Positions 3,084 to 61,435 of a DNA stretch of 64,000 nt are shown here, one piece after another. The notes under the pieces were generated by a model. It worked only from the letters and a program-made list of their open reading frames with translations. It did not search any database and was not told the origin of the DNA. Source of the DNA: a virus (lineage: Duplodnaviria; Heunggongvirae; Uroviricota; Caudoviricetes); the IMG/VR virus record IMGVR_UViG_2687453424_000001; one strand, written 5' to 3'. The position numbers and the translations under genes were made by a program. Within the stretch, counting starts at the first letter, position 1, and the number at the start of each line of letters is the position of its first letter.

Positions 3084-3311
3084 CTTTAGTGACTTGACCT
3101 TATCTGGCAAGGTATAAGTTAAAACAACCTTCTGGTCTTGCTCAACAACATTAACTAACTGCAAGAAATTGGGATCAGCTTGCTTTAATTCGTTTAGCTC
3201 ACTTAATTGGTCGTAGCGAAATTGATTGTGATTGAGTTCGAGGATTAGCTTGTTCCCTTGTCGTTTGAACGTGCCAACCTCAATATTCAATAGCTGGTTT
3301 GCTTTACTCAT
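3084..3311 (-). CDS. hypothetical protein, 5' part only (76 codons, runs into the gap); downstream gene of the conjugation operon
   Basis: Minus-strand ATG at 3309-3311 overlaps the VirB4 stop (ATGAGTAA arrangement). Translation MSKANQLLNIEVGTFKRQGNKL... stays open to the contig edge at 3084. Low-GC bacterial codon usage. No family recognised. Confidence 0.5.
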
Positions 3312-5167
3312 TTAAAGTCCCTCCTTCTTCTTCGGTGGTGGTCAAGGCGTCAATTTCACTCGGTGTCAGGATCACACGCTTTTGATAATCCGGTTGTCCG
3401 GCGGTCTCACGGTTGTATTTTTCTTGGTAAGCTTCTGGGTCGATTAACCGCAATTCTTCTTCGGTTAGCTCCACCCGCATAAAAGCGCGTTGGCTACCAT
3501 AGATCATCAGGGCTTCACCTTGTCTACGGCGTTCTAGTAACTTCTTTTCCTTATCCGAGAACGTCATTCTTAACTTAGTAATGACATCATCAACACCTTT
3601 ACCATCAAGGCCAAAGAATACCTTGGTATAGGAGTTCCCAATAATGGCTTCACCAATGTTCTGCCCAGTATCTGTCGTTCCTTCAATCACATCTTGAATT
3701 TGTTGCGTTCCGGCAATCGCCCCGGCATTGTACTTTCTAAAGCGCTTATAGGCTTGATGGAAAAAGGTAGCGGCCGCTTTATGCAAGGTCAGAAAATGAA
3801 ATTCGTCAACAAACAATTTCTTGCGGCTATGCCGATCTTTCGTGATTTCGTCCCACAAATATTGAAAAGTATTCAGGTAGGCTGCTGATTGGACTTCCTG
3901 TTCACTTTGCAGCGGTTTTAAATCAAAGGAAATGATCTTGCCCTTTAAGTTGACGTTGGTGTGTCCGTCAAATAGGCTGTTAGAACCATGGGTATAACTG
4001 CCTAAGATGTAGTAGAAGTCTTTAACCCGACTGAATTTGTCAGCGTCCTTATCAGCTAGTTTTTCCAACTCGTCATAGACATTGGATAAGGTCGGCCACT
4101 GATCGTCTTTAATCTCTTTTAAGCGGCTATATTTCAAAACGCCACTGTTGACATAAGCCTGTTTAACAACATCATCAAGGATTGCCAATTCAACTTGGGT
4201 AATCCCGGTTTTGAGGACTTCAAAGAATCCCTTTAGTCGTTGAATTTTATCTTTGACTAGTAAATCAAGGTTTGTGACCGCTTCATCAGCGCTTAGGATT
4301 TCTTCGGAAAAGATTTGTAGCGGGTTAATTTTGTACTTCGCATTGGAAGTTAAATGCAAGACTGCCCCACCCAAGGCTTCAACAATCTTGGTATATTCAT
4401 TTTCTGGATCAATAATGTAGAGTTGATAGTCTTGAATGGCATAGCGTAGGATTTTTTGGATCATATAGGTGGTCTTGCCGACCCCACTGGTACCAATAAC
4501 CACCATGTTTTGGTTCAACGTTTTGTTGCGATCCAACATATCCACGGCAATTAAGCTGTTGGTGTCTTTGTTAACCCCTTCAATATCGCTTCTAGGCTTT
4601 AAGTCCAAAATCTCGGCGTCATCAAAAGGAAACATGCTGCTGGCAACTTCGGTATTACTTTCCTTATACGTATAATCGCCTAATAGATTTTCGTTGATTG
4701 GCATAGTAGACCAAAAACTTTGAAAAGTTGCTTTAACGGGCACTAAGGGCTTCATTTGTAGCTTAATCAGTGTATTTTTAACGTTGTCAGTTAAATCGTC
4801 TAGTTCCGCTAAACTGTTAGCCCGCAGATAAACCAGCATATGTTGGTACACAAATGTGGTAGAATTATCGAGGTATTTATCTAGTTGCATATTGGCCGAA
4901 TCAATATAATTTTGCAGAATTTTCTTTTTATACGGGTCGAACGTATTTAGCTTCTGCGCTTCCTTATTTTGGATCGTCTTTTTGTAATAGGTAATCATTG
5001 AATTGTTACTGGCGCTGTCGATATATTGCACAATATCGATAACGCCTTTTTTGCGCTTTAATTCTGATAGCCAGTTGCCGTGAACTCGCTTGGGATAGTC
5101 AGCAATCGCTAACACCCGGATAAAGTTCTCCCCCGACTGCACGTAGGTGGGGTACTGTTCCCAACTG
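3304..5167 (-). CDS. VirB4-family type IV secretion / conjugal transfer ATPase (TrsE/TraE/PrgJ-like), 5'-truncated
   Basis: Bacterial part of minus-strand ORF 3304..5364. Walker A GTSGVGKT is encoded at 4471-4494; Walker B-like LFVDEFHF at about 3795-3818; AGTQ motif follows. Stop TAA at 3304-3306. The N-terminal ~65 residues of the listed ORF are read from avian repeat DNA and are not part of the protein. Confidence 0.8.
3319..3324 (-). promoter_or_regulatory. Shine-Dalgarno-like GGAGGG, 7 nt upstream of the downstream-gene ATG
   Basis: Minus strand reads GGAGGGACTTTAAATG. Confidence 0.45.
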
Positions 5168-5172
5168 CAGGT
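5165..5172. other. chimeric junction between bacterial DNA and avian repeat DNA, at a CTGCAG (PstI) site
   Basis: Homology to the avian repeat copy at 45160-45365 runs up to about 5171. Beyond it the sequence is low-GC bacterial coding DNA. No N gap at the junction. Confidence 0.7.
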
Positions 5173-8004: not shown

Positions 8005-9515
8005 GTCCTCGTGGCCCTCCTCTGGACTTGTTCCAACAGTTCCATGTCCTTTTTATGTTGAGGACACCAGAACTGCACACAATACCCAAGTGAGGTCTCA
8101 CGAGAGCAGAGTAGTGGGGCAGGATCACCTCCTTCGACCTGCTGCTCACGCTCATTTTGATGCAGCCCAGGATACGGTTGCTTTCTGGGCTGCGAGCACA
8201 CACTGCAGCTGGCTCATGTTCATTTTTCATCGACCAACACCCCCAAGTCTTTCTCCACAGGGCTGCTCTGGATCTCTGCTATCCCCAACCTGTAGCTGTG
8301 CCTGGGATTGCTCCGACCCAGGTGTAGGACCTTGCACTTGGCATGGTTAAACTTCATCAGGTTGGCATCAGCCCACCTCACAAGCGTGTCGAGGTCCCTC
8401 TGCATGGCATCCCTTCCCTCCGGCGTATCAACCGAACCACACAGCTTGGTGTCATCGGCAAACTTGCTGAGGGCGCACTCAATCCCACTGTCCATGTCAG
8501 CGACAAAGATGTTGAACAAGACCGATCCCAACACTGATCCCTGAGGAACACCACTTGTTACCGGTCTCCAGCTGGACATCGAGCCATTGACCACAACTCC
8601 TTGCGTGCGGCCATCCAGCCAGATCTTTATCCACCGAGTGGTCCACCCATCAAATTGATGTCTCTCCAATTAGAGACAAGGATGTCATGTCGGACAGTGT
8701 CGAACGCTTTGCACAAGTCCAGGTAGATGACCTCAGCTGCTCTACCCCTATCCATCAGTTCCATAGCCCCATCATAGAAGGCCACCAAATTGATCAGGCA
8801 GGATTTCCCCTTTGTGAAGCCATGCTGGCTGTCACCAACCACCTCCTTGTTTTTCATGTGCCTTAGCATGCCTTGCAGGAGAATCTGCTCCAAGAGTTTG
8901 CCAGGCACAGAGGTGAGACTGACTGCTCTGTAATTCCCCTGATCATCCATTTTCCCCTTCTTGAAAACAGGGGCTATATTTCCCTTTTCCCAGTCATCGG
9001 GAGCTTCACCTGACTGCCATGATCTTTCAAATATGATGGACTGTGTAAACTTCATTTGCCAGCTCCTTCAGGACCCGTAGATGGATTTCATTAGGTCCCA
9101 TGGACATGTGCACGTTCAGGTTCTTAAGATGGTCTTGAACCAGATCCTGTCTTACAGTGGGCCCAAGGTCTTCATTCTCACAGTCCCTGCTTCTGCCTTC
9201 CAAGACTTGGGTGATGTGGTCAGAGCCTTTGCCAGTGAAGACTGAGGCAAAGAAGTAATTCAGAACCTCAGCCTTCTCCAAATCCAGGGTAGCCAGTTCT
9301 CCTGCTAGTTTCTGGAGGGGGCCTATGTTGTCCCTAGTCTGTCTTTTATTTGCTACATACCTATAGAATCCCTTCCTGTTATCTTTCACATCCCTAGCCA
9401 AGTTTAATTCTAACTGGGCCTTAGCTTTCCTAACCTGGTCCATAGCTTCTCAGACAACATCCCTGTATTCTTCCCAGGCTGCCTTCCACCATCCCCTAAA
9501 GTTCAAATGCTTTTT
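8005..9515 (-). mobile_element. CR1 LINE ORF2 fragment (reverse transcriptase domain and C-terminal region), degenerate
   Basis: Minus-strand ORFs 9027..9443, 8627..9055 and 8220..8669 carry RT motifs ([29 protein letters not shown]; [13 protein letters not shown]; KCKVLHLG). 8005-8201 encodes [27 protein letters not shown]. Frameshifts between the pieces. Confidence 0.8.
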
Positions 9516-24141: not shown

Positions 24142-25275
24142 ATCATAGAATCATAGAATCATCCAGGTTGGAAAAGACCTTTAAGCTCTTCCAGTTCAAC
24201 CCTTACCCCAGCACTGCCGAGGCCACCACTAACCCATGGCACTGAGGCCTCGTCTCCATGGAGTGTGAACACTCACAGGGACGGTGACTCCAGCCCTGCC
24301 CTGGGCAGCCTGTTCCAATGCCAGAGCACCCTCTGGGGAAGGAATTGTTCCTCAGCTCCATCTAAACCTGCCCTGGTGCAGCTTGAGGCCGTTTCCTCTT
24401 GTCCCATCCCTTGTTCCTTGGGAGCAGAGCCCAGCCTCTCCTGGCTCCATCCTCCTGTCAGGCAGTTGTAGGGAGCGATCAGGTCCCCCCTGAGCCTTCT
24501 CTTCTCCAGACTGAACCCCCCAGGTCCCTCAGCCGTTCTCCATCACACTGTGCTCCAGGCCCTGCACCAGCTCCGGTGCCCTTCTCTGGCCCCGCTCCAG
24601 CACCTCAATGTCTCTCTTGTTAGTCAGGGACCCAGAGCTGAACACAGGATCCGAGGTGCAGCCTCACCAGTGCCCAGTGCAGGACACAACCACTGCCCTG
24701 GCCCTGCTGCCGCACTGGTGCTGATCCAGGCCAGGATGCTGGTGGCTTCCTGGCTGCCTGGGCACAAGCTGCTCCTGTTCAGCTCCATCAATCAGCACCC
24801 CCAGCTCCTTTCCCATGAGCAGTTTCCAACCGCTCTTCCCCAAGCCTGGAGCATTGCAGGGGGTTGTTGTGGCCCAAGTGCAGGAGCCAGCACTTTGCCT
24901 TCTGGAACCTCATCCCATTGGCCACAGCCCATGGATGCAGCCTGTCCAGATCCCTCTGCAGAGCTTCCTACCCTCCAGCAGATCAATGTTCCCACCTGAT
25001 TTGGTGTCATCTGCAAATTTACACATCCCAGTATGGAGCAGTATGGACCAGTTTGCACCAGTACAGACCAATATAGGCCACTATGGCCCCAGATATTGCT
25101 GGGGTTTCAATATCCCAGTGCTCCCAGTCCCTGCTGCAGGTCTTCTCATTTGCAGCCATGCTCAACTCCCAATCCCTCCCAGTGCTCCCACTACCTGCTG
25201 CAGGTGCTCCCAATCCCTCTCAGTCCTCCCCAGTCCCTCCCAGTGCTCCCAGTCCCTGCCACCGGTGCTCCTTCT
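24142..25275 (-). mobile_element. CR1 LINE 3' portion (3' terminus at about 24142), degenerate, continuing into the gap
   Basis: atcatagaatcatagaatcatccaggttggaaaagacc at 24142; 24300-25020 has the same sequence pattern as 8005-8700. Confidence 0.6.
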
Positions 25276-31295: not shown

Positions 31296-31836
31296 AGAAC
31301 TGTCGTGGTTTAAACCCAGTCAGCCATCAATCAGCCACACAGTCTCTCCCCCCACTTCTTTCCCTCCCCCTGCTCCCGGAGGGATAGGAAGGAGAATTGA
31401 AAGAATGTAACTCCCACAGGTTGAGGTAAGAACAGTTTAGCAACTAAGGTATAACACAAATCACTACTGCTACCACCAATAATAATAGTGATAAAGGAAA
31501 TAACAAGGGAAGAGAATACAACACCTCACCACCCGCCAACCGATAACTCACCCCCACCCAGCAGTGATCCAGCCCTTCCGGGTAACTCTCAGTTACCTCC
31601 CGGGCATGACGTGCTGTGGTATGGAATACCTCTCTGGCTAGGTTGGGTCAGGTGTCCTGTCCCTGCTTCCTCCCGGCTTCCCCTCCTCCCTGGCAGAGCA
31701 TGAGACTCAGAAAGTCCTTGGTCAGACCAAACATCGGTGTTATCAGCTCTGTTCCCAGGCTGAAAGTCAAAAACACAGCGCTGCACCAGGTACTAAGGAG
31801 AAAAAATGACTGCTACTTCTGAACCAGGACAGCACC
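31296..31836 (+). mobile_element. LTR (family L), copy 2, plus orientation
   Basis: Starts tgtcgtggtttaaaccc and ends ..gaaccaggaca; partial copies at 6140-6317 and about 39480-39980. Confidence 0.65.
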
Positions 31837-31839
31837 AAG

Positions 31840-32280
31840 TGACACCAAGTGACCCTCCAGACCTACAACTGCCCCCCAAAGTGACACCCCAGATCCACAA
31901 CTGCCTCCCCAGTTACCTGAAGGAGATTCCTCAGACCCACATCCGCCCCAAGTGACCCCACAGTGACCCCACATACCCACAACTGCCCCCCAAGTGACCC
32001 ACCCACACCCACAACTGCCCCCAGTGACCCCAAAGAGACCTCTCAGACCCACAGCTGATGCCCAAATGATACCCCAGACCTACAACTGCCATCCAAGTGA
32101 CCCTCCAGACCCACAAGTGCCCCCCACGTGACCCCAAAATAACTCCTCAGACCCACAACTGACCTACAAGTGATCCCAAGTGACCCCCATTACCTACAAC
32201 TGCCCCCAAGGTGACCACCAAGTGACCCCCCAGACCCACAACTGCCCCCCCAGTGACCTCAAAGAGACCGCTCAGAACAT
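31840..32280. repeat. tandem repeat, degenerate ~41 bp unit (cagacccacaactgccccccaagtgacccc), about 11 copies
   Basis: Periodic repetition seen directly; minus-strand ORF 31813..32052 is its translation. Confidence 0.7.
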
Positions 32281-59924: not shown

Positions 59925-60476
59925 GAACATGAGCCAGCTGTGTGCAGTCGCTTGGGGTATTGTGTGCAGTTCTGGTGTCCTCAACATCAAAAGGACATGG
60001 AACTGTTGGAGCAAGTCCAGAGGAGGGCCACAAGGATGATCAGGGGACTGGAGCACCTCCCATATGAAGACAGGCTGAGGAAGTTGGGGCTGTTCAGCCT
60101 GGAGAAGAGAAGGCTGCGTGGAGACCTCATAGCAGCCTTCCAGTATCTAAAGGAGGCCTATTAATATGCTGGAGAGGGCCTCTTCACTAGGGACTGTAGT
60201 GATAGGACAAGGGGTAACATGCTCAAACATAAACAGAGGAAGTTGAGATTGGATATAAGGAAGAAGTTCTTGACTGTAAGGGTGGTGAGGCACTGGAAGA
60301 GGTTGCCCAGGGAAGTCGTGAATGCTCCATCCCTGGCAGTGTTCAAGGCCATTTTGGATAGAGCCTTGGGTGACATGGTTTAGTGGGAGGTGTCCCTGCC
60401 CATAGCAGGGGGGTTGGAACTAGATGGTCTTAAGGTCCTTTTCAACCCTAACTATTCTATGATTCTACAATTCTAA
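59925..60476 (+). mobile_element. CR1 LINE 3' portion (ORF2 C-terminus and 3' end with octamer repeats)
   Basis: ORF 59940..60164 [67 protein letters not shown]; then VVRHWKRLPREVVNAPSLAVFKA; terminal ctattctatgattctacaattcta. Confidence 0.8.
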
Positions 60477-60599
60477 GGCCATGCCGAGCCTCTCTTGTGC
60501 AGCCCAGACTCATCCGAGTCAGAAGTACAAATAGTGAACTTTACAATCAAGTTGGAATTTATCTGCTATCCCTTGTGATTATCAGAGCTGGACAAAGCA

Positions 60600-60679
60600 C
60601 TGCTTCAGAGCAAACCTGACTCCCATCCAACCTGGCCTTGAACACTGCGAAGGATGGGGCAGCCACAGCTTCTCTGCTG
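60600..60679 (-). mobile_element. CR1 3'-end-like fragment, minus orientation
   Basis: catccaacctggccttgaacactgcgaaggatggggcagccacagcttctctg. Confidence 0.4.
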
Positions 60680-60757
60680 GTTAGGGTTCTCTGCTGGGTT
60701 AGGGTTAGGGTTAGGGTTTTAGGGGGTTAGGGCGTTAGGGGGTTAGGGCGTTAGGGT
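60680..60757 (+). repeat. short degenerate telomere-like repeat (TTAGGG / TTAGGGGG / TTAGGGC units) abutting vector sequence
   Basis: ggttagggtt...gggttagggttagggttagggttttagggggttagggcgttaggg seen directly. Confidence 0.75.
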
Positions 60758-60763
60758 AAAAAG

Positions 60764-61106
60764 CTCGCTTTCAGCACCTGTCGTTTCCTTTCTTTTCAGA
60801 GGGTATTTTAAATAAAAACATTAAGTTATGACGAAGAAGAACGGAAACGCCTTAAACCGGAAAATTTTCATAAATAGCGAAAACCCGCGAGGTCGCCGCC
60901 CCGTAACCTGTCGGATCACCGGAAAGGACCCGTAAAGTGATAATGATTATCATCTACATATCACAACGTGCGTGGAGGCCATCAAACCACGTCAAATAAT
61001 CAATTATGACGCAGGTATCGTATTAATTGATCTGCATCAACTTAACGTAAAAACAACTTCAGACAATACAAATCAGCGACACTGAATACGGGGCAACCTC
61101 ATGTCC
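60764..61106 (-). other. phage lambda cos region (right end joined to left end across cosN), as carried in BAC/fosmid/cosmid vectors
   Basis: Reverse complement matches, from memory, the lambda left end (gggcggcgacctcgcgggttttcgctatttatgaaaattttccgg...) and right end (...cctttccggtgatccgacaggttacg); the cohesive-end junction lies at about 60890-60902. Confidence 0.85.
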
Positions 61107-61126
61107 GAGCTCGCGAGCTCGTCGAC
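61107..61126. other. synthetic polylinker (GAGCTC-TCGCGA-GCTC-GTCGAC: SacI/NruI/SacI/SalI sites)
   Basis: Restriction-site string between lambda-derived and F-derived sequence. Confidence 0.6.
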
Positions 61127-61435
61127 AGCGACACACTTGCATCGGATGCAGCCCGGTTAACGTGCCGGCACGGCCTGGGTAACCAGGTATTTTGTCCACA
61201 TAACCGTGCGCAAAATGTTGTGGATAAGCAGGACACAGCAGCAATCCACAGCAGGCATACAACCGCACACCGAGGTTACTCCGTTCTACAGGTTACGACG
61301 ACATGTCAATACTTGCCCTTGACAGGCATTGATGGAATCGTAGTCTCACGCTGATAGTCTGATCGACAATACAAGTGGGACCGTGGTCCCAGACCGATAA
61401 TCAGACCGACAACACGAGTGGGATCGTGGTCCCAG
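61127..61435. other. F-plasmid-derived vector backbone next to sopC, with the first sopC centromere repeats (about 61352-61435)
   Basis: tgggaccgtggtccca inverted-repeat cores in direct repeats (gaccgataatcagaccgacaacacgagtgggatcgtggtcccag), recalled as the sopC partition site of pBeloBAC11-type vectors. Confidence 0.75.

Follow-up and report, generated by a model that had tools for sequence, protein, structure and literature searches.

The window, a 64-kb stretch of DNA, is ~62% N and holds ten short contigs of 0.5-4.7 kb each. The N runs between the contigs range from 20 to 5645 bases, 20 N being the shortest gap used. Both window edges fall within N runs, so the scaffold runs on past the first contig (c1) and the last (c10). 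The window is a slice of a highly fragmentary scaffold in which gap sizes are estimated. No viral genes were found in the window, and its sole long real ORF is a bacterial VirB4-like gene. In c10, avian CR1 sequence is followed by a short telomere-like tract, which in turn abuts cloning vector sequence; in c1, Lactobacillaceae plasmid DNA abuts a bird repeat (Table 1). In both contigs the foreign segment occupies the end facing an N gap. Each join also coincides with a bird repeat: in c10 this is the telomere-like array, in c1 an interspersed repeat that also occurs in c7. The joins at repeats and the termination of c10 inside the sopC repeats are typical of assembler behaviour at repeats.

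Table 1. Coordinates of the features in the window.
Feature	Coordinates	Strand	Evidence
Lactobacillaceae conjugative-plasmid DNA, 5'-truncated VirB4/TraG-type ATPase gene (c1)	3084..5167	-	
Degenerate (TTAGGG)n interstitial array, 334 bp (c9)	53685..54018	+	TRF, 51 copies, 83% match
Contig c10 (last contig; carries the repeat/vector join)	59719-61435		
Avian CR1, sense 3' part: ORF2 C-terminus, 3' UTR, terminal 8-nt microsatellite (60454-60475)	59947..60475	+	
Antisense CR1 fragment, truncated	~60600..60676	-	Alignment to c6 and to the reverse-complemented sense copy
17/18-nt tandem duplication TTCTCTGCTGG(G)TTAGGG, spanning the CR1/repeat boundary	60670..60704	+	TRF, period 18, 2.1 copies, 95% match
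Telomere-like tract, 9 TTAGGG cores in 76 nt	60681..60756	+	TRF, core positions, spacing
Artificial junction, T60757 (bird repeat) / A60758 (vector), blunt	60757..60758	.	Base-by-base alignment, two vector references
Lambda left-end vector segment, lambda nt 145 to 1	60758..60901	-	Three-way alignment lambda/window/vector
Lambda right-end vector segment, completes the cos site	60902..61105	-	Lambda-type phage matches
Synthetic linker GAGCTCGCGAGCTCGTCGAC (SacI/NruI/SacI/SalI), cos to F-plasmid segment	61106..61126	.	Read directly; identical in L001
F-plasmid sopC flank and first 43-bp sopC repeats	61127..61435	-	100% to L001; TRF period 43

The frame-1 translation of the sequence left of the join matches only bird CR1 and reverse-transcriptase-type proteins, with E values down to 8e-80, and the best CR1 protein identities, 80-84%, are to parrot entries. 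As judged from these matches, the left side is bird DNA with CR1 copies closest to parrot entries. The 8-nt repeat that TRF finds at the end of the sense copy is the CR1 terminal microsatellite; this octamer tail has been described (PMC2612034). Further to the right, positions 908-958 of c10 match c6 by BLAST as an antisense CR1 fragment. The antisense homology stops at ...CAGCTTCTCTG, where other copies go on with GGCAACCTGTTCCAGTG, indicating that the telomere-like tract begins inside a truncated CR1. The tract is flanked by the truncated CR1 on its left and the vector on its right, and any resumption of the CR1 is hidden by the vector.

The nine TTAGGG cores of the tract start at 60681, 60699, 60705, 60711, 60719, 60727, 60735, 60743 and 60751. 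Their spacing of 18,6,6,8,8,8,8,8 describes one isolated core, three perfect hexamers and then five units spaced by 8 nt. The 8-nt units alternate between GG and CG spacers and form an exact 16-nt higher-order repeat, TTAGGGGG TTAGGGCG (TRF, 93% match). TTAGGG dimers with at most one mismatch occur 32 times in the window, compared to 0.19 expected from shuffles, all on the + strand and only in c9 and c10. Tandem TTAGGG units are far above chance here, as in vertebrate telomeric-type repeats. The G-rich strand runs 5' to 3' toward the vector, and only ~75 bp of repeat are present. Base-calling noise at a read tail was rejected as the source of the tract, given the exact 16-nt higher-order repeat and an architecture of 6,6,8,8,8... 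like that of the c9 array. By its sequence, the c10 tract looks like genuine bird DNA.

The left boundary of the tract is itself duplicated. The preliminary description, which had correctly reported the degenerate TTAGGG units, also pointed to a phrase recurring around the first of them, as a hint of slippage or mis-joining. The window indeed has two copies of TTCTCTGCTGG, at 60670 and 60687, and no more. The duplication is real and tandem, although it sits at the left boundary between CR1 and repeat and most likely belongs to the bird genome rather than to the mis-joining with the vector. Since the CR1/TTAGGG boundary is tandemly duplicated, it must be older than the duplication, and the simplest view is that the bird genome itself carries it. 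A TERC-derived flank of an interstitial telomeric sequence (ITS) was rejected; the TTCTCTG before the repeat is accounted for by CR1 homology. Telomeric repeats of a herpesvirus (MDV/HVT) carried in a viral BAC were likewise rejected, there being no viral genes in the window.

A larger array of the same kind lies in c9, 7 kb upstream and in the same orientation, with unique, non-repeat flanks on both sides. It includes a block of 8-nt TTAGGGTT units with the architecture 6,6,8,8,8,8,8, like that of the c10 tract. Positions 53842-53902 of c9 equal the c10 tract at 55 of 61 positions, a score reached by 6 of 5000 unit-order shuffles. The possibility that the two are the same locus was rejected, as their left flanks are wholly different. 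The difference in the left flanks indicates that the c9 and c10 tracts are paralogous variant arrays, ~7 kb apart. Such a pair fits a subtelomeric or ITS-rich locus; background on ITS is available (PMC2246262; PMC7215372).

Several other repeats were seen in the window. In c9 (53532-54073), a (GGTCAAA)x4.6 microsatellite (53653-53684) and A/T homopolymer runs precede the array. C-rich minisatellites lie in c5 (31835-32262, with units of ~31-42 nt around GACCCACAACTGCCCCCAAGTGACC) and in c4 (25113-25271, with a 61-nt unit, CTCCCAGTCCCT...). The C-rich minisatellites fit a GC-rich, repeat-dense bird region, possibly subtelomeric or microchromosomal. An interspersed repeat of ~579 bp is shared between c2 (8911-9484) and c8 (52771-53347) with 89% identity and the same 21-nt tandem duplication.

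To the right of the join, c10 is cloning vector. Our reference, L001 (CP036489.1 15024-33701, deposited as a Rahnella plasmid), contains a HindIII/polylinker, T7 promoter, lacZ-alpha, NotI, loxP, lambda cos, sopC/sopB/sopA, repE and cat, and is plainly a pBeloBAC11-type BAC clone. In BLAST, positions 60758-61435 of the window are 100% identical to L001 9001-9678 across 678 bp, confirming that the TTAGGG units run straight into vector. The first part of this match, 60758-61105, is derived from lambda and matches lambda-type phages at 100% across the annotated cos site. The contig terminates within the sopC repeat array, which in L001 adjoins the ParB/SopB and SopA genes. A second, independent vector-bearing record is NZ_CP104070.1 (8386-12063; L002). 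The window segment has a 1-nt deletion relative to lambda (GAGGC to GAGC) that is common to both vector records, which identifies the vector rather than phage lambda as its origin. Phage lambda DNA as the source was rejected on this deletion together with the SacI/NruI/SacI/SalI linker, which match the vector records and not NC_001416. Only this piece of vector is present: BLAST against L001 found no further match in the window beyond 60758-61435, and the MCS, T7, lacZ-alpha, NotI, loxP and 78 bp of the lambda fragment are nowhere in the whole window.

In PLSDB, both records are entered as 'native plasmids', L001 as Rahnella aquatilis pMEM40-2 and L002 as a plasmid of Alicyclobacillus fastidiosus. 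Each has the pBeloBAC11-type backbone in full, comprising the polylinker, T7, lacZ-alpha, NotI, loxP, cos, sopABC, repE and cat. Both 'plasmids' appear to be BAC clones that were wrongly deposited as natural plasmids. Their occurrence shows that clones of this BAC type do turn up as contaminants in projects unrelated to them.

Comparison with the vector sequence placed the breakpoint exactly, at 60757/60758, where the join reads ...GTTAGGGT/AAAAAGCTC... and the two sides share at most 1 nt. Lambda nt 1 is at window position 60901, so that the left cohesive end and the break are 144 vector nt apart (lambda nt 145), close to the 'about 137 bp' from cosN estimated in the preliminary description. 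In L001 the junction corresponds to 9000/9001, 495 bp away from the HindIII cloning site at 8506. Both CP036489.1 and NZ_CP104070.1 are continuous through the breakpoint, reading GAGGCC/AAAAAG.

The join is neither a cloning boundary nor a packaging end at cos. A pBeloBAC11-type boundary between insert and vector would be at the HindIII/BamHI/SphI site of lacZ-alpha, from which this junction is 495 bp off. The T7 or SP6 promoter and polylinker that would stand next to an insert have no match in the window. For a cosmid or fosmid packaging junction the break would be at the 12-nt cohesive end, cosN, which is intact here (60890-60913 region), the break lying 144 nt inside the left arm. None of HindIII, EcoRI, BamHI, SacI, MboI and HaeIII has a site at the c10 junction, and ligation of restriction fragments was rejected for c10 as the junction is without a cloning-enzyme site. 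Searches for Nextera, TruSeq, the 454 linker, loxP, M13, T7, SP6 and the pUC polylinker gave zero matches anywhere in the window; a library linker or adaptor at the joins was rejected on this basis. A recurrent engineered construct was rejected as well, the junction 29-mer, GGCGTTAGGGTAAAAAGCTCGCTTTCAGC, being absent from genome_contigs, viral_contigs and metagenome_contigs.

The break falls within the apical or loop part of a strong predicted hairpin with 16-nt inverted arms, AGAAAGGAAACGACAG and CTGTCGTTTCCTTTCT. Its DNA fold has a predicted energy of -18.8 kcal/mol (z = -5.7). The inverted repeat corresponds to L001 8980-9036; one arm is kept in the window at 60779-60794 and the other is lost, leaving a vector piece that holds cosN and one inverted arm only. 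The arms are presumably the terminase-binding R sites of cosB. The apex of such a predicted hairpin would be prone to polymerase pausing or breakage, which does not by itself single out a mechanism.

A second join of the same kind is found in c1. An ORF of 686 codons in this contig matches the Pfam families P-loop_TraG (1.2e-16) and CagE_TrbE_VirB. Over 170 conjugative plasmids of Lactobacillaceae, among them those of L. plantarum, match the DNA of this segment at 93-95% identity. The match stops at 5167, although the gene in the reference plasmid extends 155 bp beyond the c1 break. Homology to the bird interspersed repeat begins at 5168, and the GC content changes across the join from ~0.38 to ~0.55. 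The junction alignment shows that this join is also blunt. Ligation at a PstI site was rejected, since the CTGCAG across the join was created by the join and is absent from both parents. Lactobacillus plasmid DNA does not belong in a BAC insert from a bird; its presence indicates that the data set holds contaminant DNA fused to bird DNA non-biologically.

In both c10 and c1, the source taxon switches at a single base and each side matches its own reference up to that base, which makes these contigs chimeric. For bird DNA to become joined to an E. coli vector, the event has to take place in vitro, inside E. coli or within software. What stands at 60757/60758 is an artefact of the laboratory or of computation in a contaminated draft assembly, not biology. 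We consider it probable that contaminant DNA was joined to bird DNA through chimeric library fragments or assembler mis-extension. Where along the way the two were joined (ligation, PCR, E. coli or software) is something we infer rather than observe; most likely, two unrelated sheared fragments were blunt-ligated to each other while a shotgun or mate-pair library was being built, giving the chimeric fragment. An assembler stalled at the telomere-like repeat would then have lengthened the contig at its tip by following the one unique path on offer, that of the chimeric read. The extension into vector would have proceeded until a new break in the sopC tandem repeats. The same process would have produced the Lactobacillus-plasmid/bird join in c1. 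Everything left of the c10 join, namely the sense CR1, the truncated antisense CR1 and the short variant TTAGGG array paralogous to that in c9, is real bird genome. For the two joins together, a chimeric library fragment or mis-extension of contig tips with contaminant reads is the most economical explanation.

Three observations count against this reading. The sequence AAGCTT forms the exact first bases of contig c8 (window 52260), in a window with three HindIII sites in all; this start may reflect a vector-trimmed HindIII BAC-end read, or chance, and hints that the data included reads from HindIII BACs of this bird, in which case the vector DNA might stem from a real clone of the locus. The breakpoint at the hairpin apex could also favour a deletion in E. 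coli. Finally, the TTAGGG strand points outward, as expected for a captured natural chromosome end.

These observations bear on a different structure, a rearranged BAC clone or a captured telomere, which we regard as unlikely to be the true one. In this scheme, a bird fragment would have had one HindIII end and one non-HindIII end, the latter formed by a natural telomere or by breakage within a telomere-like array. The HindIII end alone would have ligated to the vector, and the linear molecule would have been resected and circularised in E. coli by illegitimate end joining, with deletion of 495 bp of vector, from the MCS to the middle of cosB, and of most of the repeat array. The orientation of the TTAGGG strand toward the vector is as such a scheme predicts, the lost vector part is dispensable for replication and selection, and the breakpoint sits at a hairpin apex. 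Moreover, the AAGCTT start of c8 could be the other end of the insert, and finding two telomere-like arrays within 7 kb points to a subtelomeric location. However, the equally blunt join between Lactobacillus plasmid and bird DNA in c1 is left unexplained. The rest of the vector is absent from the window, and the scaffold goes on beyond c10 as N. Illegitimate joining in E. coli usually uses a few nucleotides of homology, and microhomology is lacking at this join. The insert would also be only ~8.5 kb if c8 is its other end and the scaffold order is right. While the preliminary description had offered a chimeric read or contig and a rearranged clone side by side, the second blunt join in c1 favours the chimera. 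We regard it as quite improbable that c10 faithfully reflects a genuine clone, with a natural bird chromosome end, or a broken subtelomeric TTAGGG-variant array, captured in E. coli by illegitimate end joining at the apex of the cosB hairpin. If this were true, the 1 kb left of the join would be telomere-adjacent sequence of a bird, possibly parrot, chromosome.

A purely computational abutment appears very unlikely. Here, a scaffolder or gap-closer would have set the bird contig against a short vector contig with no Ns between them and with no molecule spanning the join. Both foreign segments do adjoin gaps, both joins are perfectly blunt and the assembly is very fragmentary, with ~62% N. On the other hand, the other gaps in the assembly are marked by at least 20 N. 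There is also no obvious reason for a vector contig to start at L001 position 9001, the inverted arms being only 16 nt, below usual k-mer sizes.

An ordinary insert-vector boundary, in a derivative with its cloning site at this position, or a cosmid or fosmid packaging junction at cos, is essentially refuted, in line with the preliminary description, which took the join not to be an ordinary boundary. Nothing beyond insert-like DNA adjoining vector DNA speaks for it. Two independent vector records read through this point, no common cloning-enzyme site is present, 144 nt separate the junction from the cohesive end at cosN, and the junction is absent from three large public collections.

The chimeric contigs agree closely with what is known of contaminated draft eukaryotic assemblies, in which the source organism switches abruptly within a contig and the foreign ends lie beside gaps. 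The foreign material is also of a familiar kind, vector backbone and plasmid DNA of a commensal bacterium, with two independent cases here in 64 kb. Only the telomere-like repeat as one join partner is unusual. Database contamination by vector and bacterial DNA has been reviewed (PMC10978663; PMC9765019). The vector part agrees with a pBeloBAC11-type vector (mini-F, lambda cosN and P1 loxP beside the lacZ-alpha cloning site) in its cos, linker and sopC, which are identical including the 1-nt deletion. Unlike the intact vector, it is broken 495 bp from HindIII, and loxP, NotI, lacZ-alpha, T7 and the MCS are missing.

The repeat part can be compared to vertebrate ITS at double-strand breaks (PMC2246262; PMC7215372). 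As in these, a short degenerate TTAGGG tract starts abruptly inside a CR1, and a larger ITS lies 7 kb off in the same orientation. However, the right flank, where the CR1 would be expected to resume, is vector here, so that the ITS diagnosis is incomplete, and the variant 8-nt/16-nt periodicity differs from the perfect repeats of a classic short ITS. Half-YAC or telomere-end cloning would likewise give a G-rich strand running 5' to 3' toward the vector. In contrast, the vectors and steps of such cloning are designed for blunt or telomeric ends, whereas here a standard HindIII BAC is broken at a non-site. In addition, only ~75 bp of repeat are present here, and the window holds a second, unrelated chimera.

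The value of these findings is practical only. The cloning-vector part (60758-61435) and the Lactobacillaceae-plasmid part (3084-5167) should be cut out of the assembly, and the contigs should be split at 5167/5168 in c1 and at 60757/60758 in c10. If left untrimmed, the segments might be taken for a horizontal transfer, for a telomere construct carried on a vector, or for the end of a chromosome. What belongs to the bird, two TTAGGG-variant arrays with shared 8-nt units, is ordinary subtelomeric or interstitial repeat biology.
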